Shown: in pieces, positions 22,709-47,028 of the stretch
How positions within the stretch are numbered: the first letter of the stretch is position 1
How the letters are laid out: every line of letters starts with the position of its first letter
NCBI GenBank assembly: GCA_964451165.1
Contig: CAYVGJ010000002.1
Span: 97,338-161,337, forward strand
Length of the DNA stretch: 64,000 nt
Source of the DNA: an uncultured bacterium
GTDB taxonomy: Bacteria > Auribacterota > Auribacteria > Auribacterales > Auribacteraceae
Direction: 5' to 3'
The notes under the pieces: model-generated
Told to the model about the DNA's origin: nothing
The model's input: only the letters and a program-made list of their open reading frames with translations
The model's database searches: none
Made by a program: the position numbers and the translations under genes

Positions 22709-24544
22709 TCAATCGCTTTTTGACGTTCGCGAATGTATGTTTTCAATTAACTCAGCGGCTTTTCTATAATGAGGGTTAATCTCAAGGGACTTATATAAAT
22801 ATTTCAGTGCTTCCTGTGTGTTGTTTAACTGTAAATATATTACGCCGAGATTGAAATAACCCATATGGCTTTCAGGGTTCAAGGATATGGCGGATCTGAA
22901 ATTTGCTATTGATTCATCAATCAATTCTTTTTTCCTGTAAAGAAATCCAAGAAAAATATATCCTCTCTCAGATGGATAAAGCGATATGGCTTTCTTGCAT
23001 TCGTTTATCGCTAAATCTATATCGTTTGTCTGAAACGGCGATAATGTTGAAGATGGAATAATGTATTTGAATTTATTGTTGTCTATAATCGATTTATTTT
23101 TCTCATTGTTTCTCAAATAAACCAGCGAGTTGTCATCCCAGAAAACAAGTGACCAGCCGGGATTGTATGCGATTGGTTGTATAGGATCATCCGGAGCTCT
23201 TCTAAATACAACGTAATTGGCGATTATAATATCGATATTATATTTATCGAGATATTTTTCAAAACCGGGTTTTGCCTCAGCAATATTTTCGTATGCCATT
23301 GTTGTCTCGCCTGCGGCTTCAGGCACTCTGCCATCAATGAATACTTTGTAATCCGGATACAGGTTATACGACAGGTACCCGCCCCATTCCCTGAAATTCA
23401 CTATTTTGCCTTCGGGTTTAAATCTTTTCATAAATGATATCACGCCTTCAGGATACATTTTTTTCTCAATACCCAATTTGAAAAGAAGGTTTCTTGAATA
23501 TGCGCCATAAGTAAAAAAAATCAGGAACGATAATAATAAGAGAGCGGGGATGAACTTTAATGATTCAGGAAACCTAAATTTAATCGTTTCTCTCAAGTTC
23601 GGCAAAAGCGATACCATGGTAAAGGCAACGCAAACAGCTGAATAATATTCAAACCTGATTTTTGTTATTGCCATAAAAGTGAAAACAATAAAAGGAAGAA
23701 AAACAGAAAAATTTATTTTCCGGATATTCATTATGGAAATAAAGAAAACAGTTCCCGTAAGAACGATATAAAACCTTGACTTGGAAATTATGATTGGCGC
23801 CCATTCGGAATTTCTTCCGATATATAAATTTGAGTGAGCAAATGAAAATATATGCGTATATATACTGTAAAAATAAGGGTTTACGAAAGTTACAACGAAA
23901 GAAATTAAGAAAACAGAAACAAGATTAAGATCTAATTTTCTTGTTTTTAGATTATCAATAAAATAACCGGTTGTGTACGTTAATAACAGTATTATACCTG
24001 TTAAAAATTCTCCGTGAAGATTAACCCATATCAAAAAAATGAATGGAATAATATATAATAATTTACGGTTAAATGTGTTAGAATAGCCTATCAAAATAAA
24101 AAATAAAATAGGGAACAACATAAACGAAAAAATTAAAGTCCGGCATGAAATCAATCTGTCGGAAACGCAAATAAAAACAAAAAAGCTCAAAAACGCGGAC
24201 CAAAAAATATTTCCGGACAATCTAAAGATCGAACCGAAAATAAAAATAAAAGCTGTCATAATTATGGCTGTTTTAAGGAAAATCACTCCATTAATACCGA
24301 AAAAATGGTTGGTTTTGAAAAAAATTATTGTTGCTAACCATGAATGAATAGTCCATGGATTATGCTGAGGAGAGTTTAGAAAAATATCTTTAGCTGGAAT
24401 GGAATGTGTTTTGATGATATATTCAGCTGTTTTTAGGTGTAACCAGAAATCGTCATCTTTAATTGTGGAAATATTCCATCCTGTTATAAGTATGAATAAA
24501 ACAATGATAAGAACTGTATATAAACAAATTTTAAAAAATTTCAT
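22709..24544 (-). CDS. Polytopic membrane protein with C-terminal TPR repeats (GT-C/PMT-TMTC-like putative glycosyltransferase)
   Basis: About 11 TM helices in the first ~430 aa. An acidic first loop (IKDDDFWLHLKTAEY). The C-terminal ~130 aa have TPR repeats (AISLYPSERGYIFLGFLYRKKEL..., AISLNPESHMGYFNLGVIYLQL..., ALKYLYKSLEINPHY). Confidence 0.45.
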   Translation of the reverse strand: MKFFKICLYTVLIIVLFILITGWNISTIKDDDFWLHLKTAEYIIKTHSIPAKDIFLNSPQHNPWTIHSWLATIIFFKTNHFFGINGVIFLKTAIIMTAFIFIFGSIFRLSGNIFWSAFLSFFVFICVSDRLISCRTLIFSFMLFPILFFILIGYSNTFNRKLLYIIPFIFLIWVNLHGEFLTGIILLLTYTTGYFIDNLKTRKLDLNLVSVFLISFVVTFVNPYFYSIYTHIFSFAHSNLYIGRNSEWAPIIISKSRFYIVLTGTVFFISIMNIRKINFSVFLPFIVFTFMAITKIRFEYYSAVCVAFTMVSLLPNLRETIKFRFPESLKFIPALLLLSFLIFFTYGAYSRNLLFKLGIEKKMYPEGVISFMKRFKPEGKIVNFREWGGYLSYNLYPDYKVFIDGRVPEAAGETTMAYENIAEAKPGFEKYLDKYNIDIIIANYVVFRRAPDDPIQPIAYNPGWSLVFWDDNSLVYLRNNEKNKSIIDNNKFKYIIPSSTLSPFQTNDIDLAINECKKAISLYPSERGYIFLGFLYRKKELIDESIANFRSAISLNPESHMGYFNLGVIYLQLNNTQEALKYLYKSLEINPHYRKAAELIENIHSRTSKSD

Positions 24545-24682: not shown

Positions 24683-27418
24683 ATGAATTTGAAAAAATGT
24701 GTTTTGCTTGTCGCGGCTATATTATTTATTTCAGGTCCGGTATTTTCCAAAGGTGGAGACTCAGATCATGGTATTTCATTGGAAGATTTAAGAGTTCCTG
24801 ACATTAAATTCGATGAAAATCAAATTAAATATGTCGATAAAGTTTTGCCATCGCTTGAAGGCGAATATTTTGTAAAATTAAATTCAGGATTGACCTTATT
24901 GGTTAAAGAGATAGATTTTTCACCCGTTGTATCATGCCGGGTGACAATAAAGGCCGGTTCAATATTTGAAGGCAAATACCTGGGATGCGGGATATCTCAT
25001 TACCTGGAACATATTATTTCCGGCGGAAGCACTGAATTAAGGTCTGAAACCGACAATAACAAAATATTAAAAGAAATCGGAAATGCGAGCAACGCGTCGA
25101 CCAGTTACGATCACACTACCTTTTTTATAGATACAACTGCACAACACTGGGAAAAAGCTGTAAACCTTCTATATTCATATATCGCCAAATGCAAATTCGA
25201 TGAATCGGAAGTGCAAAGAGAAAAAAACGTGATTCTTCAGGAACTTAGAATGAAAGAAAACGAACCGCCAGACAGGTTATGGCAACTATTTGTCTCAACC
25301 GCATACCAGACAGATCCGCTAAGGTATCCGATAATAGGTTATGAGGAATTATTTAAAAATCTGAAGAGAGAAGATCTGGTTAATTATTACAACGAGAGGT
25401 ATCAACCTCAAAACGTGGTTTTTTCTGTTGTAGGCAATATTGATGGAATCAAAGTTATAAATGAACTGATAAACATAACAAAAGATTTTTTACCGAAACA
25501 GGAATTCAGTTATCCACTTATAGCTGAGAACAAGCAGATATCTCCTCGCTGGGCGCAGCAAGTTCATCCGGCATCGAGATTGCCTGCGATGCTGATGGGG
25601 TTCCCTTCAGTATCGATATTTGAGAAAGATCTTTATCCGCTTGATGTCTTAGCGATAATTCTTGGTGATGGACGGACATCAAGGTTGTATAAATCGCTCA
25701 AAGATCAAAAACAACTTGTTCTGTCGGTAAATACATTAAGTTGGACACCATTTACCGGAAAAGGGCAGTTCATTTTCATGCTTGATCTCGATTATAAAAA
25801 TATCGAGCCAACTATTGCGGCAATCAGGGAAGAAATACAAACAATTCAAAATGAAGGTGTGTCACAAAAAGAACTCGAAAGGGCAAAACGAAAAGTTGTA
25901 GCCGAACATATATTCAGCAATCAGAAAACAAGTTCCATATCTTCCGATATGTCATATTGTTTTTTAATAAATGAAGACCCGCATTTTTCGGAAAGATATA
26001 TCGCGCAAATAAAAGAAGTGACATCGGATGATCTGAAAAGAGTCGCGGGAGAATACTTTGATTTCAATAAAAAAACAGTGGCGATAGTAAAACCGCAAGA
26101 AACAAAAGACACAGTAACAACAAGTTCGCAGAAAAAAAGAAGCGAATCCGAAATAGAAAAGATAACTCTCCCTAATGGAGTCAGAATATTGCTGAAAACA
26201 AGCTCGGAGTATCCTCTTGTTGATTATAAATTATTTTTAAACGGCGGTTTACGTTTCGAAAATGAAAATGAATCCGGTGTAAGTAACTTTATGGCGAATA
26301 TGATAACCCGGGGAACAAAAAAACGGACAAAACAACAGATCTCGGAGTTGATAGAAAACATTGGAGGTGCTCTTTCATGCAGTTCGGCAAATAATACTGT
26401 TTCCATCGAATGCTCTGTTTTGTCGGATGATGTAAATACTGGCTATGACGTATTTTCAGATGTAATTCTCAATCCGGATTTTCCAAAAGATGAAATGGAA
26501 AAACTGCGAAAAGAAATTCTTCTTACATTGGAAAAACTTGATGAATCATGGGAAACAGAAATAATGAGATTTCTCGCTAAGAATTTCTATAAGAACCATC
26601 CTTACAGGAATGATATTTTGGGTACAAAAGAATTTGTTTCAAAAGCCGATAGAGGCGATTTGATGAATTTTTACGATAGAATTTTTGTTCCTAAAAATAT
26701 GGTTATCGCGGTATTCGGCAATTTCGACAAAGATAAAATGATTAAAAAACTAAAAGATACTTTCGGGAATCTCAAATCGAAACCACTTGTAAAACCTGAT
26801 ATAAAACCGGAATTCGGCGAAAACTTAAAAGGCGATACAAAAATCGAGAAAATAAGCGATAAGTATTCCGTTTCCATAATGATCGGGTATAAAGGCATGA
26901 GTGTTTTTGACAAAGATAAACCTGCCCTTGATGTGCTCGATTCAGTAATATCTGGTATCGGATATCCATCAGGTTGGTTGCAGGAGAGTTTACGGGGAAA
27001 CGATTCCTCATTGGTTTATATGGTTCATGCTTTTCCGCAATACGGGATCGATGGAGGTTATTTTGCTATTATGAGCCAGACTACGTCTGAAAATTATGAT
27101 AAAGTTATGGGCATAATAAATAAATGCATCAATAAAGCTAAAACGGAAGGTATTACTAAAGCGGAACTTGATACAGGTAAAAACATATGTGTCACAATGA
27201 TGGAAATGGGGCTGGAAACCATGAATAGACAGGCTTATAATGCCGCGTTAAATGAATCTATCGGGCTTGGCTATGACTATACTCAAAAATATCTGGAAGC
27301 AATAAAAAAAGTCACAAAAGAAGATGTGGATAATGCCGCAAAAAAATATTTTGCGAATAGTTTAACCGTGACCGTATTCCCGAAAGATTATAAGAAAAGC
27401 GATAAATCCTCAAAATAG
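24683..27418 (+). CDS. Secreted M16-family (pitrilysin/insulinase-like) zinc peptidase with tandem M16 units
   Basis: A signal peptide. The inverted zinc motif HxxEH (GISHYLEHIISGGS) in the first unit. A second M16-like half (residues ~480-900) lacks the motif, as is typical of a non-catalytic partner half. Confidence 0.75.
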   Translation: MNLKKCVLLVAAILFISGPVFSKGGDSDHGISLEDLRVPDIKFDENQIKYVDKVLPSLEGEYFVKLNSGLTLLVKEIDFSPVVSCRVTIKAGSIFEGKYLGCGISHYLEHIISGGSTELRSETDNNKILKEIGNASNASTSYDHTTFFIDTTAQHWEKAVNLLYSYIAKCKFDESEVQREKNVILQELRMKENEPPDRLWQLFVSTAYQTDPLRYPIIGYEELFKNLKREDLVNYYNERYQPQNVVFSVVGNIDGIKVINELINITKDFLPKQEFSYPLIAENKQISPRWAQQVHPASRLPAMLMGFPSVSIFEKDLYPLDVLAIILGDGRTSRLYKSLKDQKQLVLSVNTLSWTPFTGKGQFIFMLDLDYKNIEPTIAAIREEIQTIQNEGVSQKELERAKRKVVAEHIFSNQKTSSISSDMSYCFLINEDPHFSERYIAQIKEVTSDDLKRVAGEYFDFNKKTVAIVKPQETKDTVTTSSQKKRSESEIEKITLPNGVRILLKTSSEYPLVDYKLFLNGGLRFENENESGVSNFMANMITRGTKKRTKQQISELIENIGGALSCSSANNTVSIECSVLSDDVNTGYDVFSDVILNPDFPKDEMEKLRKEILLTLEKLDESWETEIMRFLAKNFYKNHPYRNDILGTKEFVSKADRGDLMNFYDRIFVPKNMVIAVFGNFDKDKMIKKLKDTFGNLKSKPLVKPDIKPEFGENLKGDTKIEKISDKYSVSIMIGYKGMSVFDKDKPALDVLDSVISGIGYPSGWLQESLRGNDSSLVYMVHAFPQYGIDGGYFAIMSQTTSENYDKVMGIINKCINKAKTEGITKAELDTGKNICVTMMEMGLETMNRQAYNAALNESIGLGYDYTQKYLEAIKKVTKEDVDNAAKKYFANSLTVTVFPKDYKKSDKSSK

Positions 27419-27427
27419 AATGAAAAT

Positions 27428-27805
27428 ATGGATTCGAAAAGAATATTAATAGAAAAAATATTAAAAAAACTTTCTAATTCTCCTTTTCGAAAAAGATTCG
27501 TACTTGGCACAAATGATATAATATATTATAATTCTAAAGGTTATGATGTAATTAAAGAACATGCGTGCCATTTTGTAAGAGAGAGAATTGCGCCTGAAAA
27601 AATAGTAAATGACGGTAAACAGACACCGATGAAAAAACATCCTGTATTTATTGCTCAGCACGCTACTGCGACCTGTTGCAGGGGATGTATAGAAAAATGG
27701 CATGGAATAGAAAAAAATAAACAACTCAACGAAGATGAAATTAATTATATTGTGGATATTATAATGTTATGGATACTTACCCGGATAAAAACTTGCCCGA
27801 ATTAA
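27428..27805 (+). CDS. DUF4186-like small protein
   Basis: ...VFIAQHATATCCRGCIEKWHGIEKNKQL... matches my recollection of the conserved core of DUF4186 (about 120 aa). Confidence 0.4.
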   Translation: MDSKRILIEKILKKLSNSPFRKRFVLGTNDIIYYNSKGYDVIKEHACHFVRERIAPEKIVNDGKQTPMKKHPVFIAQHATATCCRGCIEKWHGIEKNKQLNEDEINYIVDIIMLWILTRIKTCPN

Positions 27806-28170
27806 ATAATGCAATTGATTTGAAATTGATTTTCGACGAAATCAATCGGAACTATTTCGATAATAAACTTGAATGCAGGGTGATTTTCGGCAGGAAATAT
27901 CATTCGCCGCGCACAAGATGTATCAGGCTTGGAAGTTTCAATTGTGCCACAAATACAATACGAATCAACCCGGATCTGAATGATCTCGATATCCCCCATT
28001 TTTTGATAAAGTATATTATGTACCATGAAATGACTCACGCATGGTGTTATCAGAATCATTCCCGCCTTCGCCACAGAGGGCCATTTCAGCTTAAGGAAAA
28101 AGAATTTACTGATTTTAAAATCGCGCGGAAATGGTTGAGGGATAATAAAAAACTTTTTTTCAAGAGGTAA
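27769..28170 (+). CDS. SprT-like zinc metalloprotease domain protein
   Basis: The SprT-like layout: FDEINRNYFDNKLE..., then HExxH (YIMYHEMTHAW). It overlaps the upstream gene by 37 nt. Confidence 0.55.
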   Translation: MDTYPDKNLPELNNAIDLKLIFDEINRNYFDNKLECRVIFGRKYHSPRTRCIRLGSFNCATNTIRINPDLNDLDIPHFLIKYIMYHEMTHAWCYQNHSRLRHRGPFQLKEKEFTDFKIARKWLRDNKKLFFKR

Positions 28171-28172
28171 AA

Positions 28173-28973
28173 ATGAATATTGTGTCGGCAAGCAGGCGAA
28201 CAGATATACCTGCTTTTTACGCGCAATGGTTTATGGATGGTTTAAAAAGAGGGGCGATCGAGTTTATTCATCCGTATTCAGGGCAACGATTGAATGTATC
28301 TTTAAAACCAAACGACGTTATCGCTTTTGTTTTCTGGTCAAAAAATTTCTGCGGGTTTATCGATCATCTCGAGTGGATCAGAAAAGATTATGCATGCGTA
28401 TTTCATTACACGATAAATGAATATCCTCTTGAAATAGAAGGCAATATACCGCTTCTTACCAGAAGGTTGGATTCGTTTAAAAAAATATCGGATATGTTTT
28501 CGCCTGATAACATTATTTGGCGGTATGATCCTATATTATTAACAAAAAATTTCAATATGGATTATCATCTCGCAAAATTTACTGAAATTTCAGGTATTCT
28601 CAAAGGATACACTAAAAAATGCTACACAAGTTTTGTTCAGCTTTACGGAAAGAATAAGGTAATCCTTAGAAATTCAGGAGTAGACGAAAATGAGTCCCAA
28701 AATACAATAAAACTTGATCTAATTAGCAAACTAAAAGGTATTTGTGAATCAAATACGATGGAATTGCTTAATTGTTGTTATCCTTTGCTCAAAGAAGCGG
28801 GTGTGCCTTCCGGAAGCTGTATAGACAAGAAATTGATAGAAAAAATAACAGGTTTAAACCTTAAAGAAATAAAAAAAGCGCCGACAAGAAAATCGTGCGG
28901 ATGTTATAAAAGTATAGATATTGGGACATATTCCACCTGCAAGGGCAAATGTCTTTACTGTTACGCACGATGA
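28173..28973 (+). CDS. DUF1848-like protein with a C-terminal Cys cluster that includes a CxxxCxxC
   Basis: The N-terminus SASRRTDIPAFYAQWFMDGL...VIAFVFWSKN...IIWRYDPI matches my recollection of DUF1848. The C-terminus is ...CGCYKSIDIGTYSTCKGKCLYCYAR (C-x3-C-x2-C). Confidence 0.5.
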   Translation: MNIVSASRRTDIPAFYAQWFMDGLKRGAIEFIHPYSGQRLNVSLKPNDVIAFVFWSKNFCGFIDHLEWIRKDYACVFHYTINEYPLEIEGNIPLLTRRLDSFKKISDMFSPDNIIWRYDPILLTKNFNMDYHLAKFTEISGILKGYTKKCYTSFVQLYGKNKVILRNSGVDENESQNTIKLDLISKLKGICESNTMELLNCCYPLLKEAGVPSGSCIDKKLIEKITGLNLKEIKKAPTRKSCGCYKSIDIGTYSTCKGKCLYCYAR

Positions 28974-28982
28974 AAGGGAATT

Positions 28983-30044
28983 ATGGCAAAAACAGATTTT
29001 GTTATACCAATTTTTATTCCTCATGATGGTTGCCCATTTCAATGTATTTTCTGCAACCAGAACAGTATAACCGGAACCAACAGTTCACCGGGTGAAAACG
29101 AAGTCAGGAATATAATAGAGAACTATCTTACCACTATTTCCAACAGGTCAAAAAGAGTTTATATCGGTTTTTACGGTGGAAGTTTTACAGGTATAGACAG
29201 GAAACTTCAGGAAAAGTATCTGAGTATTGCTTCACAATATGTAAAAAGCGGAATAATAAATGGAATACGTTTATCAACAAGGCCGGATTTCATTAACGAT
29301 GAAATACTTTCATTTCTAAAAGATCATGGAGTTTCTCAAATTGAGCTTGGAATTCAATCGTTTGATGATGATGTACTGCGAATATCAAAACGAGGTTATA
29401 CATCAATACAAGCGATAGACGCATCTATTCTTATAAGAAGACGAGGCTTTTTGCTTGGTCACCAGATGATGGTTGGTTTACCCGGAGATTCGTGGAACAA
29501 AACAGTTTTGAGCGCGCTTACATCGATAAATTTAAATCCCGATATGGTTCGGGTATATCCATTGCTGGTTATGAAGGATACTCCTCTTGCGCAAATGACA
29601 GACTATAAACCGTTGTCTTTTGATGAAGCGATTGAGCGCGCAAGATTCCTTGTAGAGTTATATGATAAAAATAATATAAAGATTCTCAGAGTAGGATTAC
29701 ATCCTCCAAAAGACGCATCAAATATATTGGATGGCCCATACCACCCGGCATTTAAATTTGTTGTGAAATCACGAATCTGGGGCGCTTTTTTAAGAAAAAT
29801 ATCGGGATGTGAAGGCAGAAATCCAGATCAGATATTTGTGTCCGAGGAAAATTATGATTTTTTGATTGGATATAAAAGCGAAAACACAAAGTTTCTACCT
29901 CCAAAACAAAAAATAATTAAATCTTCATGGATTGAGCCGGATCATCTTTTGGTTAAATTCGGGGATAAATCAAAATTTTTATCCAGGCTGAAGTTCAGAG
30001 ACGATTATTTGTATTTTAAAATATCAGATCATTTATGGGATTAA
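28983..30044 (+). CDS. Radical SAM protein (ELP3/HemN-like superfamily), function unknown
   Basis: A CxxxCxxC near the N-terminus (FIPHDGCPFQCIFCNQ), a GGSFTG glycine-rich SAM motif, and a TIM-barrel-like length (353 aa). Confidence 0.65.
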   Translation: MAKTDFVIPIFIPHDGCPFQCIFCNQNSITGTNSSPGENEVRNIIENYLTTISNRSKRVYIGFYGGSFTGIDRKLQEKYLSIASQYVKSGIINGIRLSTRPDFINDEILSFLKDHGVSQIELGIQSFDDDVLRISKRGYTSIQAIDASILIRRRGFLLGHQMMVGLPGDSWNKTVLSALTSINLNPDMVRVYPLLVMKDTPLAQMTDYKPLSFDEAIERARFLVELYDKNNIKILRVGLHPPKDASNILDGPYHPAFKFVVKSRIWGAFLRKISGCEGRNPDQIFVSEENYDFLIGYKSENTKFLPPKQKIIKSSWIEPDHLLVKFGDKSKFLSRLKFRDDYLYFKISDHLWD

Positions 30045-30048
30045 GGCA

Positions 30049-30783
30049 ATGAAAAACAAAGGTATGGTTCTTGTAAGCAGTGATTTCCCATCAGCGATGA
30101 AGAACTGTCTCGTATCTGATGGGTGGGAGGCTGTCAATGTCCCGTTTTGCGATCAGGTTATGCCTTCAATAGGAGGACATCCGGAACTTCAGGTATTCGT
30201 TATTGATCAACAGGAAATTATCGTTCACCCTGATATTCCTAATTCATTTCTTGAGACAATTAAGAGAAAATTCTCGCGCATTATTGTTGGCAACAAACAT
30301 TTGTCTAAAGAATACCCATATGATATTGCTTATAATGGAAAGATAATAGGAGATACTTTCTTTCATAAACTTGAAAATACCGATCCGATATTGCTAAAAA
30401 GTTTGACTCTTGCGGGTTATGAGTTTGCCGATGTAAATCAGGGTTATAGCGGATGTTCTATACTCAATATAGGAAATGAAGCTTTGATTACAGCAGATGC
30501 AGGGATTGCTCAATCAGCTGATATACTTGGTTTTGATGTTTTGCTGATAACACCTGGATCTATCGATTTACACGGTTTAAACTACGGGTTTATCGGAGGT
30601 GCCTGCGCATGGGATGGTCTCGAGACAGTTTATTTTTGCGGTAACGTAAAACATCATCCTGACGGCGCAAAGATAACCGAATTTATTCATCAATTCGGAT
30701 ACAAGACAGTCAATTTGAGTGAAAACAGATTAACTGATTACGGATCTCTTTTATTTATCGCGAATAATCATAGTATCTTGTAA
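30049..30783 (+). CDS. Hypothetical protein, possibly pentein-fold (amidinotransferase/DDAH/arginine-deiminase-like)
   Basis: The near-C-terminal GFIGGACAWDG resembles the GGG-x-(H)C catalytic Cys motif of pentein enzymes, and GHPELQ lies upstream. This rests on weak motif-level similarity only. Confidence 0.3.
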   Translation: MKNKGMVLVSSDFPSAMKNCLVSDGWEAVNVPFCDQVMPSIGGHPELQVFVIDQQEIIVHPDIPNSFLETIKRKFSRIIVGNKHLSKEYPYDIAYNGKIIGDTFFHKLENTDPILLKSLTLAGYEFADVNQGYSGCSILNIGNEALITADAGIAQSADILGFDVLLITPGSIDLHGLNYGFIGGACAWDGLETVYFCGNVKHHPDGAKITEFIHQFGYKTVNLSENRLTDYGSLLFIANNHSIL

Positions 30784-32795
30784 ATATTGAATCTTTGATT
30801 CGAATACAGCAGTTTGAATCTCTTTAATGTTTCGGGCAAATATATTGATCTTGCCCTGATAGTACTTTTGCCAAGTTCAGTAGGAATACCGTTTTGCTGG
30901 AATAAAGCCGGATAATTATATTCCGCATAAAGAGCATATAATTGAGTACGTGATACATATTTATCAACAAAATATATACCCATGCCGAGATTTTTGCAGT
31001 ATTGATAGAATTTCTCTTCGTCATTTTGAAGAAGTAGCTGACTCATCTCAACAAGCCTTTTATGAACAAGTTTGCTCTCAAGTAGCCCATCGAGAAACGT
31101 AGCGCTTTGCGCGTAAGTTTGGATAACATAACCGTAACTCCAGTAACTGATAACCGGAAGACGATCCGGGTTGAGTTTTTCAAGTTTTATAAGGGCATCC
31201 TCAAGATGGGGGCGTAAATCAAGCCTTAGTTTTGTCATATAAACTCCGGTTTTCCAACCTGATCCGACAATTAAAGTTGTACATAAAACCATTAATGCCG
31301 CGATAGCCATATTCCGTAAAGGAGAATTTTTTAAAAAATTTATTGTGCGATCGACAGATATTGCTCCGGCTAATGCTACAAATATAGAAAGAAGTACTTT
31401 ATTGCGGTAAAACATAAGTGTCAGGAAAAATATTGAAAAGAAAAATACAGCGATAATTAATTCACCAATAGAAATTTTATCTTTTTTGTTTCTGAAAATT
31501 AGTATGGATAAGGGATATAAGAAAATAAATATCCCGCCCCACGAACACATATCCCATTTGAAGATATCTTTTAATGGGACAGAGGAAAGTTCAGCCGTAT
31601 TTATAAAAAGAATATTCTCAATACCGGTGATCTGACCTATACCGAGTTTTAAAAGAAGAACCTTAATAAATGATTCGTAACCTGTAGATAAATGAAGCAT
31701 CGGAATAAATAAGACAAGTATAAACGGAACCATAAGATAAAATGGATCGAATTTGAAGTTTTTCTCTTTATTCCACCACTTTGTTAACAGAGTTGATATT
31801 GCCAATCCTGTAATAAGCATTCCATTGTGAGAGAAGATATAGCGTTGCGAAGATAGGAAATCAAAACCAAGAAAACTTATAGCAAGCCCTCCAAAAAGAA
31901 AAGAAAAGGGGATTACTATGTTGCGATCAGCCCGTTTTAAAAAGACTATCAGTAAAAATATAATGCTGTAAAGAGTTGGGAATAAAAGCGATATTCTCCA
32001 TGTCCCGACAGAAAGCAACATAAAAAATGCTGAAATAATGCTGTAAATATAGCATTTTTTATCATCTTTCTCATCCATAGCTTTTATGAAAAAATAAATA
32101 TTGAATAGAAGGAAAAATACGCCGGGACCTTCATAGCGGTATCTGGTAGCCAATGTCCGTACCAGATTGCCAGGCATTACAGCCGCGAGTGCTGCGCCAA
32201 TAAACGAAATATAATCTTTGCCTGTTATTCTCCGGAGAATAAAATAAATAGGAATCATAGTCATAGCGCACAAAATTGCGTAAAATAGCTCCACAGATCT
32301 CTGAACTGATCCATCTGAAAACACGTGATAAATTTTATAAAATCCTGCACCCAGATAATATAAAACAACAGGGAGGTTTTCCGGAATCGGTTTGCCTTCC
32401 GGATACCATGACATCTTATCAATCGCCGGGACATGTCCTGTTTTTAGAACTTCTTCGGTCATTCTTAAATGAAAAGCGTAATCATAATCCAACATGGTGT
32501 TGGGGTATTGATATATTGGGTACATTCTCCAGTAATACCCGAAATAAAATAACAAAATCAAACCGGCTAGAATAAGGGCAAATTTCAGGTATTTATTTAA
32601 TACGAAAGAACTATCTTTTTTGCTCAGATCAGGCTGGATATCCGCTGTTTTCTCTATAGCTTCGTAATCGGAGATAATCTTTTCTATATATTTTACGTTT
32701 ACGCCAAGTTGTTTAGCAATTGAATTCAAAGATTGCTTTTTATAATTCTCTATAACGTATTTCTTTTGGTTTTCTGAAAGCTGTTTGTCTGTCAT
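30768..32795 (-). CDS. GT-C membrane glycosyltransferase with an STT3/PglB/AglB-like WWDYG-type motif (candidate oligosaccharyltransferase). It has an N-terminal ~60 aa soluble HTH-like segment.
   Basis: About 13 TM helices. Then PVISYWSYGYVIQTYAQSATFLDG; compare WWDYGY-x-I...T-x-VDG in STT3/PglB. A C-terminal ~150 aa soluble domain follows. The N-terminus LNSIAKQLGVNVKYIEKIISDY looks helix-turn-helix. Strong SD AAGGGAAGGA. Confidence 0.45.
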   Translation of the reverse strand: MTDKQLSENQKKYVIENYKKQSLNSIAKQLGVNVKYIEKIISDYEAIEKTADIQPDLSKKDSSFVLNKYLKFALILAGLILLFYFGYYWRMYPIYQYPNTMLDYDYAFHLRMTEEVLKTGHVPAIDKMSWYPEGKPIPENLPVVLYYLGAGFYKIYHVFSDGSVQRSVELFYAILCAMTMIPIYFILRRITGKDYISFIGAALAAVMPGNLVRTLATRYRYEGPGVFFLLFNIYFFIKAMDEKDDKKCYIYSIISAFFMLLSVGTWRISLLFPTLYSIIFLLIVFLKRADRNIVIPFSFLFGGLAISFLGFDFLSSQRYIFSHNGMLITGLAISTLLTKWWNKEKNFKFDPFYLMVPFILVLFIPMLHLSTGYESFIKVLLLKLGIGQITGIENILFINTAELSSVPLKDIFKWDMCSWGGIFIFLYPLSILIFRNKKDKISIGELIIAVFFFSIFFLTLMFYRNKVLLSIFVALAGAISVDRTINFLKNSPLRNMAIAALMVLCTTLIVGSGWKTGVYMTKLRLDLRPHLEDALIKLEKLNPDRLPVISYWSYGYVIQTYAQSATFLDGLLESKLVHKRLVEMSQLLLQNDEEKFYQYCKNLGMGIYFVDKYVSRTQLYALYAEYNYPALFQQNGIPTELGKSTIRARSIYLPETLKRFKLLYSNQRFNIYKIL

Positions 32796-32977
32796 ATATA
32801 TCCTTCCCTTAATTTTTTTATAAAAATGAAATCATAATTTTTTTTTAATTGAAATGCAAGTCAGAATAATTTAACAAAATATCGTGTATGCGGTATCTAT
32901 ATATTAGGTACAGAAATAATTTTATGTTTTAGGGAAATCTGATATTATAAAATAAAAATCATTTTTGTGAGGTGGAA

Positions 32978-34621
32978 ATGAAAAAGAAAGAGCGAATTAT
33001 TAAAATATTTCATACGGTTTCTTCCGATTTAAATGATGAAAAAGATATTGCCAGTGAAATAGTTAAAAAAATAAATAAAGATAGGGCGAAAAGTCTTCAT
33101 TCAAAATTCGAAATAACTTTTTCCAGTATAGATGAGGAATTACCAGCCGGAGATCAGAATACCCAAATTAATAAAATGATTCAGGAATGTGATATATTTA
33201 TTTTCGGGTTATGGAAAAAATGGAATCTTTACGCATGGAAAATATTATCACCGTTTGAAGAAGAATTTGAAATAGCAAGAAATAAATTTCAAGTTCAAGG
33301 TAAGCCACTTGTAATATGTTATTTTAAAGAAATACCTGACGATATGATTTGCGACCCGGGGGAGCAATTGAAAAAGGTTCTGGAATTTAGGACCAATATA
33401 GAATCATCAAAAAAAGTACTTTATTATAATTACGAAAAGGTTACTCAGTTTTCAAGTATGCTTTATGAATTTCTATGGGAATATCTCGATAACAAAAGCT
33501 ATGATGATATTCTTAATGAAGAGAATGCAAAACGGTTGATCGACATTCCCGATGAAATAATACAGAAAATCAATTTATTTCATAAAAAATATATGGAAAC
33601 AGAGTTTACAGGAAAAGGTGAGCTTTCCAAGACATCCATGGAATTTGCTATGGATGCTTTCAGATGTATAAAGGAATATAAATTTACTCTTGCGCAGGAA
33701 TGTTTCATAAAATCGCTCGAAATGGAGGAAAATCCTTATGTACTTGACGCATATGGTTTAATGCTGATTCAACTGGATTATTTCTTTAAAGCTGAAGAAA
33801 AATTTAACCGGTTGTTACAGATATCCAACTCATACGAAGACGGTATGTTGTTAAAATCTTACGCATATAATAATCTCGGTAATATGTACGAGGTTCTGGA
33901 AGATCTCGATAATGCTTCTAAAATGTATAAAAAAGCGCTTGATATTGACTTACAGCTCAAAAGAAAAGAAGGGATCATATCCAATTATAATAATCTCGGT
34001 ATTATCTACAGAAAACAAAATGAATTTGATAAAGCCGAAGCAATGTATAAAAAAGCTCTTGATGCCGATCTCCATACTGAAAGTACACAAGCTACGGCAT
34101 CCGCTTATGGAAATCTCGGCAATATTTATTTGCTGAAAGATGAACTTGATAAAGCCGAAACAATGTATAAAAAAGCGCTTGATATAGATATGAATCTTTG
34201 GTGTAAAGAAGAAATCGTTACCGATTGTTTTAATTTGGGCAATGTGTATACAAAACGCGGTGATTTTTTGAATGCTGAGGAGATGTATGATAAATCGCTG
34301 GAATTAAGTTCGGAGAATTGGATAAAAAAGGAAATAGCGTCAAATTATTGTTACCTGGCGCGAAGATATGGTACAGACGGTAATCTTGATCGGTCTGAAT
34401 CGTTATATAATAAGGCGCTTGGGTTATCGAGGGAACTCGGCAGTAAAAAAGGGATGGCTTCAATTTATCTTAATCTTGGGATTTTATACGAACACAAAGG
34501 GGATTTTGGCAAAACCAAAGAATTTTGGATTAAATCAGAGGAATATTACAATCAGATGGGAAATGAAAAAGAGGTTAATAAATTAAGGACCTGGATCAGG
34601 GATCTGGACATAAATGAATGA
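32978..34621 (+). CDS. DUF4062 (TIR/deoxyribosyltransferase-like Rossmann domain) N-terminal domain fused to TPR_12-type tetratricopeptide repeats. The start is placed at the ATG at 32978; the track begins at a GTG at 32972.
   Basis: The N-terminus IKIFHTVSSDLNDEKDIASEIVKKINKD...FSSIDEELPAGDQNTQINKMIQECDIFIFGLWKKWN...SPFEEEFEIARNKFQVQGKPLVICYFKEIP follows the DUF4062 consensus as I recall it. About 7 40-aa TPR repeats follow (A[EK]xMYKKALDIDL...), visible also as ~120-bp periodic DNA repeats. Confidence 0.5.
   Translation: MKKKERIIKIFHTVSSDLNDEKDIASEIVKKINKDRAKSLHSKFEITFSSIDEELPAGDQNTQINKMIQECDIFIFGLWKKWNLYAWKILSPFEEEFEIARNKFQVQGKPLVICYFKEIPDDMICDPGEQLKKVLEFRTNIESSKKVLYYNYEKVTQFSSMLYEFLWEYLDNKSYDDILNEENAKRLIDIPDEIIQKINLFHKKYMETEFTGKGELSKTSMEFAMDAFRCIKEYKFTLAQECFIKSLEMEENPYVLDAYGLMLIQLDYFFKAEEKFNRLLQISNSYEDGMLLKSYAYNNLGNMYEVLEDLDNASKMYKKALDIDLQLKRKEGIISNYNNLGIIYRKQNEFDKAEAMYKKALDADLHTESTQATASAYGNLGNIYLLKDELDKAETMYKKALDIDMNLWCKEEIVTDCFNLGNVYTKRGDFLNAEEMYDKSLELSSENWIKKEIASNYCYLARRYGTDGNLDRSESLYNKALGLSRELGSKKGMASIYLNLGILYEHKGDFGKTKEFWIKSEEYYNQMGNEKEVNKLRTWIRDLDINE
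33900..34500 (+). repeat. Intragenic ~120-bp periodic nucleotide repeats encoding TPR units (not CRISPR)
   Basis: Near-identical 26-30-nt cores (gataaagccgaa[ag]caatgtataaaaaagc[gt]cttgat...) at about 33922, 34044 and 34164, spaced 120 nt (40 aa) apart inside the TPR ORF. Confidence 0.7.
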
Positions 34622-37221: not shown

Positions 37222-38724
37222 ATGAGAATTTTGTTTATATACCCGAACTTATATGCCCAAATCGGATTCAATTATGGAGTCGCGTTTCTGTCCGCTGTTT
37301 TAAAGAAAGCAGGGCATGAGACAAAACTTCTAAATATAAACGATAAACTCGGTTTTTATCTTGATCACGATAGAATTAAAAAGGAAGTTCTTAATTTTGA
37401 TCCCGAGCTTATTGCATTTTCTGTTGTTACCAATCAATATCAATTCGCCAAAAACATTGCTTCAGAGATAAGAAAATATCATGACGCTCCTATATTATGT
37501 GGTGGAATACACCCTACCATGGATCCGGAAGGCGTACTCAATTCAGGCGAATTCGATTTCGTGTGCATGGGAGAAGGTGAAGGCGCGCTATGTGATTTGG
37601 CGGGAAACATCAATTCTACTGAAGAAATCAAAAAAATAAAAAATATATGGATGAAGGACAACGGTTTAATTATAAAGAATCCGATGCGAGAATTGGTTGA
37701 CCTTTCTACCTTACCGCGCAAAGATTACGAAATATTTGATTTCCAAAAGATGATTGACGCAAAAGACGGATGGGTCGGGCTTATGACATCGCGCGGATGC
37801 CCGTTCAGATGCACATATTGCCTCAATCATAAAATAGTCAAGATGTATCAGGATGACCTGCAGACAAAAAAAATCAACTATATGCGGTGCCATTCCGTGG
37901 AAGACGTCATAAGCGAAATAGATTTTGTCCTGAGAAACTATGACCGCATAAAAATGTTTATTTTTGATGACGACCTGTTTACTTTCAATAAAGAATATGT
38001 TGAAGATTTTTGCAGGCAGTACAAAAAATATTTCAGGGTGCCTTTTGTATGTAATGCTCATGTAAAGGTTTTTGATGATTCTATCGCCCAGGGGTTGAAA
38101 GATGCCGGTTGCCAAATTGTCAAGTTTGGGCTGGAAAGCGGGTCAGATAGGGTCCGGTCTCAGATAATGCGCAGGTTTATGAAAAACGAGGATATCGAAA
38201 AGGCTTTTGCGTCAGCGGAAAAAGCGGGCCTGCACAGTTCCGCGTTTGTCATGATGGGATTGCCTTCGGAATCCGATGAGGAATTGCAGGAAACCATAGA
38301 TCTTCTCGGTAGAATTAAACCGGGAAGGTTCCGTTGGGCGATTTTTTTCCCGTTCATTAATACTGAAGCGTACGATATAACAAAAAATTTAGGGTTGATC
38401 AACGAAGAAAAGATCAATTCACTCGCCAATTTTACTGAAGAAAGTTGTTTAAACCTTTCGGATCAGGTTTACAGGAAAGTCAAATGCATGCAGAAAATTT
38501 TCCCATGGTATGTAAATGCTTCCTCAAATCTTGAGGTAGCACCTTTATATAAGAATCTGGTTGAAATTATTGAGAATTTATCTGAAGATGAATGGGTTAA
38601 TATAAAAGATAATTTGCGCCGGATCGATGAAGATTTGTCAAAAGTGCTGGATTCAAAGGGATGTACTCATTACAGAATAAAATACAATAGCTTTACAGGA
38701 GTCAGAAGCGATTGGATAGATTAA
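37222..38724 (+). CDS. B12-binding-domain radical SAM protein
   Basis: An N-terminal cobalamin-binding Rossmann-like domain (MRILFIYPNLY...AFLSAVLKKAGHETKLL). The radical SAM cluster motif GLMTSRGCPFRCTYCLNH, 500 aa. It is the first large gene of the LPS-core operon. Confidence 0.75.
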   Translation: MRILFIYPNLYAQIGFNYGVAFLSAVLKKAGHETKLLNINDKLGFYLDHDRIKKEVLNFDPELIAFSVVTNQYQFAKNIASEIRKYHDAPILCGGIHPTMDPEGVLNSGEFDFVCMGEGEGALCDLAGNINSTEEIKKIKNIWMKDNGLIIKNPMRELVDLSTLPRKDYEIFDFQKMIDAKDGWVGLMTSRGCPFRCTYCLNHKIVKMYQDDLQTKKINYMRCHSVEDVISEIDFVLRNYDRIKMFIFDDDLFTFNKEYVEDFCRQYKKYFRVPFVCNAHVKVFDDSIAQGLKDAGCQIVKFGLESGSDRVRSQIMRRFMKNEDIEKAFASAEKAGLHSSAFVMMGLPSESDEELQETIDLLGRIKPGRFRWAIFFPFINTEAYDITKNLGLINEEKINSLANFTEESCLNLSDQVYRKVKCMQKIFPWYVNASSNLEVAPLYKNLVEIIENLSEDEWVNIKDNLRRIDEDLSKVLDSKGCTHYRIKYNSFTGVRSDWID

Positions 38725-39794
38725 AAAATGTTCCGCTAAATCCGCAAAGAATTGTTGTAAGGTGTCCGAATTGGATTGGTGACGCGGTTATGGCTACTCC
38801 TTTTTTATCCGAATTGAGAGAAACATATCCGAACGCGGAAATTACTTTTATGCTTCGGGAATATGTTAAGGAAGTTTACAGCGGGGCTCCATGGGCGGAT
38901 AAGTATGTAATTACAAAGAATAAACAGAGGACAAAATTCCTTAAAAGAAGATTAAATTCAATTGTTGAGAATATACAGATGCTTAAAAACGGGAATTATG
39001 ATCTTGCCGTTTTGCTTTCAAACTCGTTTGAATCGGCTTTCGAGGCCAGAACTGCGGGTATCCCAAATCGAATAGGTTATAGAAGAAACGGCAGGGGATT
39101 TCTGATTACTAGTGGTCCTAAAGCCGTACGGCGATCGGGAGTTTATGAGCCGGTATCAATGATAGATTATTATAACGAGCTGGGTAAATATCTCGGATTC
39201 AGAAAGTTTTTTCATGATATGGCTTTGTTTTTGAGTCCGGAAGATGAATGTAAAACGAATGCTGTTATGAATCAATTTGGGATTGACGAATCTTCAAATC
39301 TGATCGGGTTAAACCTTGGCGCCGCGTTCGGAAGCTCAAAATTGTGGAAACCTGAATATTTCGCGCAGGTGGGGGATTATTTCGCGCGGAATCCAAAAAA
39401 CAAAGTCATGCTACTCGCGGGACCTAATGAAGATATAATTCTCGACAAAATATCCGCAATGATGCAGTACCCTAAAATAAAACTTACTTCGGATTTAGTT
39501 CCCATCGGGGTACTTAAAGGAATTATAAGAAGATTATCGTTACTTATAACAAATGATACCGGGCCAAGGCATTTTGCTTCATCTTTCGGAATACCTTCGG
39601 TTGTATTGATTGGGGCAACTAATCCGAGATGGACCACAAATAATGATTCGAAACAAATAGTTCTTATGAAAGTACCTGTTTGCGGGCCGTGCCATTTGCG
39701 CAATTGCCCGATGAACCATCAATGTATGCGAAACATTAAACCTGCCGATGTAGTTCAAGCGGCTGAAAAACTTTTAGGATCACCAATAGCATGA
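38712..39794 (+). CDS. ADP-heptose:LPS heptosyltransferase (GT9). It has a TTG start that overlaps the upstream stop.
   Basis: RIVVRCPNWIGDAVMATPFLSELRETYPNAEITFML is the N-terminal GT9 signature. The C-terminal ...ITNDTGPRHFASSFGIPSVVLIGATNPRW is also conserved. Confidence 0.7.
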   Translation: MDRLKNVPLNPQRIVVRCPNWIGDAVMATPFLSELRETYPNAEITFMLREYVKEVYSGAPWADKYVITKNKQRTKFLKRRLNSIVENIQMLKNGNYDLAVLLSNSFESAFEARTAGIPNRIGYRRNGRGFLITSGPKAVRRSGVYEPVSMIDYYNELGKYLGFRKFFHDMALFLSPEDECKTNAVMNQFGIDESSNLIGLNLGAAFGSSKLWKPEYFAQVGDYFARNPKNKVMLLAGPNEDIILDKISAMMQYPKIKLTSDLVPIGVLKGIIRRLSLLITNDTGPRHFASSFGIPSVVLIGATNPRWTTNNDSKQIVLMKVPVCGPCHLRNCPMNHQCMRNIKPADVVQAAEKLLGSPIA

Positions 39795-40825: not shown

Positions 40826-41285
40826 AGATATTTTAGCAAAAGAGAAATCCAATGGTAAAACAGTTGTGTTTACCAACGGGTGTTTTGATATTCTGCATGT
40901 CGGCCATATCCGTTGCCTGAAAGACGCGAAATCACTCGGTGATATTCTGATTGTAGCCGTAAACAGCGATCAGTCCGTTATTGGCAATAAAGGAGCTCAC
41001 AGGTTGTTTTATCCTGAATCCGAAAGGGTTGAGATTCTTGAAGCAATCGAATATATTGATTATATTCTCCTTTTTTCCGACAGTACCGTAGATAATATAT
41101 TGCTTGAACTTAAACCCGATTATCACGCCAAAGGTACCGATTATACCGTCGATAATGTCCCGGAAAGGGAAACCGTTCTCAGTTACGGCGGAAAAATCGC
41201 TATAGTAGGCGATCCGAAAAATCATTCCAGCTCGGAAGTCAAATCAAAATTAAAAAAAGACATTCTTGTCCCCAATGAAAAATAA
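40794..41285 (+). CDS. hldC: D-glycero-beta-D-manno-heptose-1-phosphate adenylyltransferase (RfaE domain II / HldC-like)
   Basis: VVFTNGCFDILHVGHIRCLKDAKSLGDILIVAVNSDQSV is the cytidylyltransferase-fold HxGH motif. It overlaps the kinase gene by 32 nt in a different frame. Confidence 0.8.
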   Translation: MRKLQTLSSLKDILAKEKSNGKTVVFTNGCFDILHVGHIRCLKDAKSLGDILIVAVNSDQSVIGNKGAHRLFYPESERVEILEAIEYIDYILLFSDSTVDNILLELKPDYHAKGTDYTVDNVPERETVLSYGGKIAIVGDPKNHSSSEVKSKLKKDILVPNEK

Positions 41286-44404: not shown

Positions 44405-44405
44405 A

Positions 44406-45602: not shown

Positions 45603-45605
45603 AAG

Positions 45606-47027: not shown

Positions 47028-47028
47028 T

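Follow-up and report, generated by a model that had tools for sequence, protein, structure and literature searches.

The window, that is, the whole 64,000-nucleotide stretch of DNA that was analyzed, carries on its reverse strand a complete open reading frame (ORF) for a GT-C glycosyltransferase of the STT3 superfamily. Judged by its sequence, the gene encodes a genuine though unusual bacterial relative of the N-glycosylating STT3, with changes at two residues that define that enzyme. The gene and the main parts of its product are as follows:

30768..32795, (-): complete ORF of the STT3-superfamily GT-C glycosyltransferase gene, 675 aa, ATG start
32801..32810, (-): Shine-Dalgarno-like AAGGGAAGGA, with its 3' end 5 nt 5' of the ATG
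32640..32795, (-): predicted cytoplasmic three-helix helix-turn-helix (HTH)-like domain, residues 1-52 (helices 8-17, 23-30, and 34-51; AF2 pLDDT 87.3)
31227..32594, (-): GT-C transmembrane (TM) domain (Pfam STT3 N-terminal domain), residues 68-523, about 13 helices in the AF2 model
30771..31214, (-): periplasmic C-terminal alpha/beta domain, residues 528-675 (148 aa) in the AF2 model, corresponding to the minimal "central core" unit of AglB-S

The Shine-Dalgarno-like sequence supports the annotated start and hence the translation of the N-terminal extension. The gene forms a solo transcription unit, overlapping a convergent DUF6873 gene by 16 nt at their 3' ends; upstream are a 176-bp intergenic region (32796-32971) and a divergent TPR gene. 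No second copy of the family was found elsewhere in the window. At the orthologue loci, a conserved set of neighbors running from an M16 peptidase to radical SAM-DUF6873 lies convergent to the STT3-like gene, an arrangement more suggestive of synteny across the phylum than of a functional partnership. A pgl- or agl-like operon was rejected upon comparison of the orthologue loci, as the gene is monocistronic and has no conserved glycosylation partner directly beside it.

A first-pass annotation of this DNA had proposed an STT3-superfamily GT-C protein with the STT3/AglB architecture, comprising ~13 TM helices followed by a soluble C-terminal domain of ~150 residues, and our analysis agrees. The protein matched Pfam STT3 (PF02516) with 75.9 bits (E 5.7e-21), full-length hhalign of its family to the canonical set gave a probability of 100 (E 6.9e-53), and AglB and STT3B came out on top among the PDB structures. 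The AF2 model, of moderate overall quality (pLDDT 73.8) and poor in EL2 and EL5, shows the expected helices with an AglB-type core at the C terminus. An ArnT/PMT/YfhO-type GT-C identity was rejected, given that the match to Pfam PMT_2 (30.1 bits, cut-off 26.1; E 6.6e-07) is a weak secondary one far under the STT3 score and that the ArnT, Pmt, ALG, and Aft structures scored well below those of AglB, STT3B, and DPY19.

Predicted catalytic motifs of the transmembrane domain

Four motifs of the TM domain could be aligned with catalytic loops of human STT3A, Campylobacter PglB, and Caenorhabditis elegans DPY19 (CeDPY19):

32466..32492, (-): EL1 motif LDYDYAFHL; D105 = STT3A D49 = PglB D56 = CeDPY19 E71 (catalytic carboxylate)
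32121..32159, (-): EL2 motif R213-TLATRY-R220-Y-E222-GPG; R213 = STT3A R160 = CeDPY19 R211, and E222 = STT3A E169
31587..31616, (-): EL5 motif NILFINTAEL; E402 = STT3A E351 (SVSE) = PglB TIxE Glu (E319) = CeDPY19 E400 (SAEF)
31395..31412, (-): EL6/TM12 motif FYRNKV; R464 = STT3A R405 = PglB R375 = CeDPY19 R471 (phosphate binding)

Their conservation was followed in 15 orthologues from Candidatus Auribacterota-type genomes (51-78% identity) and in 53 representatives of a neighboring clade, whose uncharacterized members (P0017-P0066 tier) come from Omnitrophota, Eisenbacteria, and Auribacterota and go by the name "STT3 domain-containing proteins." The acidic EL1 residue, D105, which had been singled out for inspection, is invariant in the orthologues and is Asp in 49 of the 53 clade representatives. 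E402 and R464 are likewise invariant among the orthologues and are retained in 49/53 and 51/53 clade representatives, respectively, while in EL2 the clade keeps R213 in 51, R220 in 48, and Glu or Asp at position 222 in 52. Next to these motif residues, L403 aligns with CeDPY19 F401 and V467 with CeDPY19 L474.

A departure from STT3 and AglB in this domain concerns the metal-ligand Asp (STT3A D167, PglB D154), whose position is occupied by R220 in the phmmer, hmmalign, and hhalign alignments and in 15/15 orthologues. In the literature, the EL2 motifs are given as Rx6DNE versus Rx6LRE (PMC6801728). The query reads R-Y-E instead of the L-R-E of DPY19, its second Arg being one position off, and has Asp where EL1 of DPY19 carries the catalytic Glu of its ExE motif, a change that left ~80% of the activity in the CeDPY19 E71D mutant (PMC10154233). 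CeDPY19 is metal independent, with Arg211 and Arg471 stabilizing the Dol-P leaving group (PMC10154233). An Arg at the R220 position is also found in archaeal AglB-type proteins that bear WWDYG ("R-H-E"), and therefore R220 alone does not exclude an ordinary N-oligosaccharyltransferase reaction.

Putative acceptor-site residues of the C-terminal domain

The C-terminal globular domain has the "central core" fold of AglB and PglB, and its sequence is nearest to that of the C-terminal domain of prokaryotic Dpy19-like proteins. Two of its elements bear on the acceptor:

31128..31145, (-): YWSYGY, positional equivalent of WWDYGY with the first Trp changed to Tyr and Asp to Ser; invariant in 15/15 orthologues
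31074..31094, (-): LDGLLES loop, L568 to S574; invariant in 15 orthologues

The string PVISYWSYGYVIQTYAQSATFLDG was confirmed at residues 547-570, and the earlier proposal that its YWSYG block is positionally equivalent to WWDYG was upheld by four independent alignments: phmmer against human STT3A, the match of residues 548-570 to positions 5-27 of Pfam STT3-PglB_core (19.2 bits, under the 23-bit cut-off), hmmalign of 33 WWDYG-bearing homologues, and the full-length hhalign to the canonical set. One structural match supports the C-terminal domain only and not the YWSYGY column alignment. The WWDYG motif is present in all AglBs (PMC4287180), and its WWD residues combine with the K or I from the DK/MI motif to make the pocket for the +2 Ser/Thr (PMC3703281). 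At the sequence level, a regex search for a DK string (DxxKxxx(M/I), or its insertion variant) or an MI string (MxxIxxx(I/V/W)) found none on helix 614-623 (SRTQLYALYA), the helix after the central strand and the expected site; DK/MI motifs are often unrecognizable without three-dimensional superposition (PMC3703281). Matches to the variant DK regex at 593-605 were rejected, as their helix precedes the central strand and aligns with STT3A "EEKAYEIMREL" and not with the DK helix, and as they are not conserved.

The second element contains an extra GLLE insertion, relative to AglB and STT3, after the conserved Asp. By a transitive alignment through a weak match (E 0.011), LDGLLES corresponds to the CeDPY19 loop N574-H575-P576-H577-Y578-E579-H580, with D569-E573 aligned to H575-E579, so that the CeDPY19 P576 loop is replaced by D-G-L-L-E. 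This mapping used a single TPR-less Dpy19-like member, because the TPR tails of some members swamped the whole alignment against the PDB. In CeDPY19, the loop from His575 to Arg584 touches the acceptor (PMC10154233). DGLLE is also a signature of the bacterial clade, where D569 is found in 53/53 and E573 in 49/53 representatives.

These observations bear on the enzyme type put forward in the first-pass annotation, a PglB/AglB-type N-oligosaccharyltransferase, which was not sustained as stated. Such an enzyme would transfer an oligosaccharide en bloc from Und-PP to the Asn of N-x-S/T, with YWS tolerated in place of WWD. In sequence and in structure, STT3 and AglB are indeed the best matches, D105, R213, E222, E402, and R464 are all kept, and Tyr, Trp, and Ser could still hydrogen-bond the +2 hydroxyl; the archaeal proteins with WWDYG and R-H-E, as well as a cluster in the window for Und-PP-glycan assembly that includes the initiating phosphoglycosyltransferase, point the same way. 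However, WWD plus a DK/MI residue is the Ser/Thr pocket of every characterized oligosaccharyltransferase (OST) (PMC3703281), and this family invariantly departs from WWD at two of three residues, no DK/MI string occupies the expected helix, and Arg replaces the metal-ligand Asp. In addition, NCBIfam archaeo_STT3, like STT3-PglB_core, falls under its cut-off (42 versus 450 bits), and the gene lacks a pgl-like operon. We thus regard an ordinary N-oligosaccharyltransferase as unlikely. With near relatives that match Pfam STT3 and Pfam Dpy19 alike (Dpy19 bits of 32.4 for P0019, 30.1 for P0021, and 44.6 for P0030), these changes and the solo unit leave N-linked glycosylation as one possibility and not the conclusion.

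On balance, we consider it probable that the gene encodes a 13-TM STT3-superfamily GT-C enzyme acting as a polyprenyl-phosphate-sugar-dependent periplasmic protein glycosyltransferase with a noncanonical acceptor motif and possibly no need for a metal; its donor, acceptor, and metal dependence are what we infer from the sequence comparisons. On the periplasmic side of the membrane, a polyprenyl-(pyro)phosphate carrier would give up its sugar or glycan to an exported protein, an extended segment of which would be gripped by EL5 and the C-terminal domain. D105 (EL1) and E402 (EL5) would engage the acceptor group in the manner of OSTs, and the phosphate leaving group would be handled by three arginines, i.e., R213, R464, and R220, the last at the OST metal-Asp site. 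Such an arrangement would make a divalent-cation-independent reaction likely, as was shown for DPY19. The clade-specific DGLLES loop would line the acceptor site, and with the WWD-to-YWS change and no identifiable DK/MI residue, a classical N-x-S/T sequon would not be expected.

Single-subunit oligosaccharyltransferases are key tools of bacterial glycoengineering, the use of which is limited by their sequon and donor specificity. The OST scaffold of the bacterial clade, with its remodeled acceptor pocket and an Arg at the metal-ligand position, could offer new acceptor specificities or metal-independent chemistry.

Relatives of the family and its N-terminal extension

A scan of GTDB genomes with the family alignment returned six loci only, all from Auribacterota-type genomes. 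The neighboring Omnitrophota/Eisenbacteria/Auribacterota clade shares with the query the EL1 Asp, R-x6-R-x-[E/D], xxEL in EL5, the EL6 Arg, xWxxGY, and DGLLE[S/D], but differs from it in its low identity (17-28%), the lack of an HTH-like N terminus, and variable positions 1, 3, and 4 of the WWDYG block. An acidic residue stands at the WWD Asp position in 20 of 52 clade members, and at that or the next position in 30 of 52; the acid retained in those 20 members suggests that parts of the clade may keep OST-like peptide recognition. In a rough neighbor-joining tree, which is indicative only because the alignment was anchored on the query-family HMM, the query family branches close to where the archaeal WWDYG proteins join, outside the bacterial xWxxGY clade. 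No published work naming these proteins was found in the literature on bacterial DPY19 homologues, Omnitrophota STT3, or Auribacterota glycosylation.

Among characterized systems, the closest include archaeal AglB (above all short paralogues such as A. fulgidus AglB-S2; also the full-length AfAglB-L, PDB 3WAJ/7E9S) and eukaryotic STT3A/B (CAZy GT66), from which the query differs by Arg220, by YWS for WWD, by a DK/MI string not identifiable by sequence, by its HTH-like domain, and by its bacterial (Auribacterota) setting outside any agl/pgl cluster. Campylobacter PglB (PDB 3RCE/5OGL) is a remoter match than AglB, STT3, or even DPY19 and, unlike the query, combines DxD in EL2 and WWDYG with an MI motif; its periplasmic domain is larger, and it belongs to a pgl operon. 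Also close are the tryptophan C-mannosyltransferases CeDPY19 and DPY19L1-4 (GT98, PDB 7ZLG-7ZLJ), along with the prokaryotic Pfam Dpy19 proteins. To our knowledge, tryptophan C-mannosyltransferases are limited to metazoa and alveolates.

The likeness to DPY19 raises the alternative of a monoglycosyltransferase that would use a polyprenyl-monophosphate sugar, without a metal, to modify another side chain in an extended peptide (e.g., by Trp C-glycosylation, or at Arg, Ser, or Thr). Several comparisons make this unlikely. The query gave no match to Pfam Dpy19 (PF10034) at E<=10, and the clade profile is far nearer to STT3 (E 1.8e-36) than to CeDPY19 (E 8.6e-7). The EL2 Arg is out of register with L-R-E, and the aromatic cage for Trp is mostly lost, with Y395, F401, and Y578 replaced by F397, L403, and L572 according to the transitive alignment. 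The query also keeps a W-x-x-G-Y remnant of WWDYG that Dpy19-like proteins do not have, and the genes identified next to it include no synthase for polyprenyl-phosphate mannose or glucose. As part of the protein glycosyltransferase reading considered probable above, and with the same confidence, the query family would be a group of orthologues confined to Auribacterota and bordering on a broad bacterial clade that bridges STT3/AglB and DPY19-like enzymes.

The first ~60 residues had been described earlier as HTH-like and unusual for STT3, and both points stand: the N-terminal residues are conserved in 15/15 orthologues as a three-helix unit, which is restricted to the Auribacterota orthologue family and absent from all other, more distant homologues inspected. 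Nearly all top Foldseek matches to this domain are HTH DNA-binding domains (E 0.2-1, sub-threshold), and sub-threshold Pfam HTH matches recur among family members (Sigma70_r3 in 10/13 and HTH_Tnp_ISL3 in 8/13). The PAI subdomain of Sleeping Beauty (PDB) matched the N-terminal segment at E 0.007 and was also counted as sub-threshold. Such an HTH-like domain, conserved and found only in this family, in combination with the lost metal ligand, would suit a catalytically dead STT3-like scaffold, i.e., a membrane-anchored HTH transcription factor or sensor with the GT-C body as a ligand-binding module. That reading appears very improbable: every HTH match is sub-threshold, and the conservation of D105, R213, E222, E402, and R464, without exception in the 15 orthologues and also in the clade that has no HTH, speaks for an active site that has been preserved.

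A broader and distinctly tentative proposal is that the Auribacterota family and the bacterial xWxxGY/DGLLE clade together constitute a third functional class of the STT3/DPY19 superfamily. Its members would be protein glycosyltransferases that are metal independent and use a new acceptor motif or residue (neither N-x-S/T nor WxxW), the HTH-like domain would couple the Auribacterota transferases to DNA or to a cytoplasmic partner, and the class would be a bridge showing the rise of the DPY19 type from STT3-type ancestors in prokaryotes. Because the query family has its TM active site in common with STT3/AglB and its C-terminal domain in common with prokaryotic Dpy19-like proteins, how tryptophan C-mannosyltransferases originated becomes a question that can be tested in prokaryotes.

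Surrounding glycan and envelope genes

A cluster for the assembly of a lipid-linked glycan is situated at 37-49 kb of the window, 4-16 kb from the gene, and fits the proposed protein glycosyltransferase; among its genes are those for a Bac_transf phosphoglycosyltransferase, a GT4, a GT2, and two GT9 proteins. LPS-core-type genes (GT9 heptosyltransferases, HldE-like enzymes, and WaaP/Kdo-family kinases) are found near the gene in the window and at three other orthologue or clade loci. These latter genes, the position of clade member P0041 after YceG/MltG, and an acceptor site whose residues are largely hydrophobic and which has lost those for sequon recognition are all consistent with a nonprotein acceptor, i.e., an envelope glycan or lipid (LPS core/O-antigen, capsule, or peptidoglycan-linked polymer), as with the ArnT, Emb/Aft, and ALG-type GT-Cs. 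Nevertheless, peptides are the substrate of all characterized members of the STT3/DPY19 branch, the peptide clamp (a long EL5 with the TAEL motif and the AglB-type C-terminal core) is kept and conserved, and linkage to the glycan cluster is loose, the cluster being missing from two of five orthologue contexts. An envelope glycan or lipid as the acceptor thus seems rather improbable to us. Either protein or envelope glycosylation is pointed to by the family as a conserved trait of the little-known phylum Auribacterota.

Other clade members stand in varied settings. P0021 is directly adjoined by the same B12-rSAM and GT9 pair as in the surroundings of the query gene, and P0030 is located in a run with ORFs of 6,404 aa and 10,376 aa, whose products are possible acceptors. 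As for the four other GT-C proteins that the first-pass annotation had counted in the window, the description was only partly borne out: one is a Wzy_C+TPR protein of the O-antigen-ligase family and not a classical GT-C, two are multi-TM ORFs without a Pfam match, and one is a multi-TM protein with TPRs, the orthologue of which matches PMT_2.

Gene, predicted fold and family

The STT3-like open reading frame (ORF; 30768-32795, minus strand) encodes 675 residues from an ATG, with a Shine-Dalgarno-like AAGGGAAGGA upstream that ends 5 nt from the start codon. The gene is a solo transcription unit; the convergent DUF6873 gene shares 16 nt with its 3′ end, and a 176-bp spacer separates it from a divergent TPR-protein gene. 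This divergent neighbor (32972-34621, plus strand; 549 residues, of which the N-terminal ~250, unassigned to any family, precede a TPR_12 array) is kept in the closest relatives, and other genes stand there in more distant orthologue loci. An AlphaFold2 model built from 15 orthologues (pLDDT 73.8, pTM 0.73) predicted the following architecture, with external loops EL2 and EL5 at low confidence.

Predicted architecture of the STT3-like protein
Residues 8-51, three-helix N-terminal unit
Residues 68-523, transmembrane (TM) region of ~13 helices with a long, low-confidence EL5
C-terminal alpha/beta domain, 148 residues

The first-pass annotation had proposed an STT3/PglB/AglB-like oligosaccharyltransferase (OST) with a WWDYG-type block. 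Both the ORF and the block were recovered; residues 547-570 are PVISYWSYGYVIQTYAQSATFLDG, in which YWSYGY aligns to WWDYGY at the equivalent position. The family assignment also held: Pfam STT3 (PF02516) matched residues 75-320 (E = 5.7e-21; 75.9 bits, cut-off 24.5), and Foldseek ranked STT3A, STT3B and yeast Stt3 first (E = 1e-15 to 1e-12, TM 0.61-0.67), followed by AfAglB (1e-12), C. elegans DPY19 (CeDPY19; 1.8e-11, TM 0.62) and PglB (1e-8). The closest solved relatives by sequence were human STT3A and STT3B (E = 3.6e-10). Pfam STT3-PglB_core on residues 548-570 (19.2 bits) stayed under its 23-bit cut-off, and NCBIfam archaeo_STT3 (42 bits) far under its cut-off of 450 bits. An ArnT/PMT/YfhO-type identity was rejected since ArnT and PMT types scored well under STT3: PMT_2 was a weak secondary match, yet above its own cut-off (30.1 versus 26.1 bits), ArnT appeared far down the Foldseek ranking, and no YfhO-type match was found among the Pfam hits.

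Relatives and active-site residues

A word-indexed search returned only 15 full-length orthologues (51-78% identity) before a large gap, and a genome scan confined the family to Candidatus Auribacterota-type MAGs, Ca. Auribacter fodinae among them. Searching 1.84 billion representatives with a profile yielded 1,018 relatives at E<=1e-3. After clustering at 50% identity, the orthologues collapsed to one representative; the next, near tier holds ~53 representatives, its named members belonging to Omnitrophota, Eisenbacteria and Auribacterota, and several of its proteins match both Pfam STT3 and Dpy19. Beyond it lie archaeal-type WWDYG proteins and a prokaryotic tier over the Pfam Dpy19 threshold (P0081, 103.7 bits; P0090, 96.9 bits). 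The latter proteins carry E in EL1 and L-R-E in EL2, and have H-x-K-F-E where others have D-G-L-L-E. This Dpy19-passing tier comprises P0081, P0090 and ~18 others (97-104 bits), some TPR-fused and one from Ca. Erginobacter occultus.

Residues were mapped by phmmer to STT3A, by hmmalign of ~130 homologues and by full-length hhalign of the query family to the canonical D-x-E/WWDYG set (probability 100, E = 6.9e-53), with OST residue roles as listed in PMC6801728. CeDPY19 equivalences are transitive, through P0090.

Query residues, their counterparts and their occurrence in the near tier
D105 (EL1): STT3A D49, PglB D56; 49/53
R213: STT3A R160, PglB R147, CeDPY19 R211; 51/53
R220: STT3A D167, PglB D154 (metal-ligand Asp); 48/53
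E222: STT3A E169; E or D in 52/53
E402 (NTAEL): STT3A E351 (SVSE); 49/53; TAE402-L403 corresponds to CeDPY19 SAE400-F401
R464: STT3A R405, PglB R375, CeDPY19 R471; 51/53
V467: CeDPY19 L474
Y551-W552-S553-Y554-G555-Y556: WWDYGY; near tier xW552-x-x-G555-Y556
D569: conserved Asp downstream of WWDYGY; 53/53
D569-G-L-L-E573: CeDPY19 H575-P-H-Y-E579; E573 in 49/53

All 15 orthologues keep the OST-mapped residues (D105, R213, R220, E222, E402, R464, YWSYGY and D569) and the LDGLLES block unchanged. In the near tier the remaining WWDYG positions vary, and the Asp position is acidic in 20 of 52 members. The scaffold and most catalytic residues are OST-type, but the query has Arg for the EL2 metal ligand and YWS for WWD, and so lacks two of the N-oligosaccharyltransferase hallmarks tested. 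Without 3D superposition, neither a DK nor an MI motif could be recognized in the sequence, the expected helix (614-623) being SRTQLYALYA; such motifs are sometimes unrecognizable unless superposed in 3D (PMC3703281). Regular-expression matches elsewhere in the C-terminal domain were discarded, as they fall on another helix and are unconserved.

In profile-profile comparison the query family's score was 418 with the canonical set and 372 with the Dpy19-like one, and the clade profile matched STT3A (1.8e-36) far more strongly than it did CeDPY19 (8.6e-7). In its TM active site the family is STT3-like, while its C-terminal domain matches the Dpy19-like tier strikingly well. A rough neighbor-joining tree, indicative only, separated the three groups and placed the query family close to where they meet. 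Our literature searches turned up no paper on these proteins.

CeDPY19 works without metal; Arg211 and Arg471 stabilize its Dol-P leaving group, and the loop His575-Arg584 (Pro576, Tyr578) with Tyr395/Phe401 holds the acceptor Trp (PMC10154233). Because it aligns to CeDPY19 H575-E579, the invariant DGLLES loop most likely contributes to the acceptor site. The aromatic cage that holds Trp is mostly missing. R220 is one position off the DPY19 L-R-E and is not the same arginine; in the alignment it places a third cationic group exactly at the OST metal-binding position. The phosphate leaving group would then depart with Arg help, independently of metal, and the acceptor motif would be other than N-x-S/T. 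R220 on its own is not decisive, since an archaeal-context, WWDYG-bearing AglB-type subgroup (P0056, P0075 at locus L016, P0083, P0086, P0091 and P0104) has 'AGFYRHEQ' at EL2, with Arg at the usual metal-binding Asp site of DxD/DxE.

Of the OST proposal, membership in the STT3 superfamily and an AglB-like architecture therefore stand, and the metal-ligand Asp and WWD do not. The protein belongs to a bacterial branch without characterized members that bridges STT3 and DPY19. We infer a periplasmic protein glycosyltransferase, possibly metal-independent, using a polyprenyl-phosphate-linked donor and a non-canonical acceptor motif.

The N-terminal segment

Residues 1-52, kept in all orthologues (consensus [KR]xISxRQKQYIxDN...ELAKHLN...KEVxxVI) and absent from every other homologue inspected, form three confidently modeled helices (pLDDT 87.3). 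Pfam matches were to HTH families throughout, every one sub-threshold: Sigma70_r3 in 10 of 13 members, HTH_Tnp_ISL3 in 8 of 13, and HTH_23, HTH_28 and HTH_SB. A PDB profile search found the Sleeping Beauty PAI subdomain (E = 0.007), and the top Foldseek ranks were nearly all HTH DNA-binding domains, at non-significant E values of 0.2-1 (IstA, 1.1 Å over 38 residues; ArdK; CENP-B; RcsB/GerE; KorA). An HTH-like fold, as first suggested from the sequence, is therefore likely.

Neighboring genes and glycan functions

Gene groups near the STT3-like gene
24683-30783, plus strand, convergent operon: M16 peptidase (911 residues), DUF4186, SprT-like, DUF1848, radical SAM (with Radical_SAM_C), DUF6873
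37222-49049, plus strand, lipid-linked-glycan assembly cluster

Four of five orthologue loci (L001, L003, L004 and L005) retain the M16-to-DUF6873 operon; it is not co-transcribed with the STT3-like gene, and nothing evident in it points to a role in glycosylation. The assembly cluster encodes a B12-binding radical SAM protein, a GT9 and a PfkB kinase with a cytidylyltransferase-like protein (HldE-like), and further two WaaP/Kdo-family kinases, a GT4, a GT2, a second GT9 and a Bac_transf initiating phosphoglycosyltransferase with CoA_binding_3. Pieces of it reappear within a few kb of orthologues, and a B12-binding radical SAM and GT9 pair directly adjoins clade member P0021 (L014). Another member, P0030 (L015 1-17980; 659 residues; Dpy19 as its only Pfam match), lies between ORFs of 6,404 and 10,376 residues, with a small TPR protein overlapping its start and a PMT_2 GT-C downstream; this locus may be a glycosyltransferase/giant-surface-protein module. 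These loose associations hint at a donor pathway nearby and at giant surface proteins that would serve as acceptors.

Elsewhere in the window, a 12-TM protein (381-2273, plus strand) joins Wzy_C (O-antigen ligase family) to C-terminal TPR repeats, as PglL-type O-oligosaccharyltransferases and ligases do; GT4, GDP-mannose-dehydratase-like epimerase and UDP-glucose dehydrogenase genes follow downstream. The protein at 22709-24544 (minus strand; ~8 TM helices, C-terminal TPR array) is the TMTC/PMT-like GT-C and TPR fusion suspected in the first-pass annotation, because its orthologue in L005 (15947-17773) matches Pfam PMT_2. Two multi-TM ORFs had no Pfam match at E 0.1 (11827-13359, plus strand, ~9 hydrophobic segments, 510 residues; 50962-52395, plus strand, ~7 hydrophobic segments, 477 residues). 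A single 742-residue ORF (55533-57761, minus strand) fuses an extracellular solute-binding SBP_bac_1 domain to an ABC permease, BPD_transp_1.
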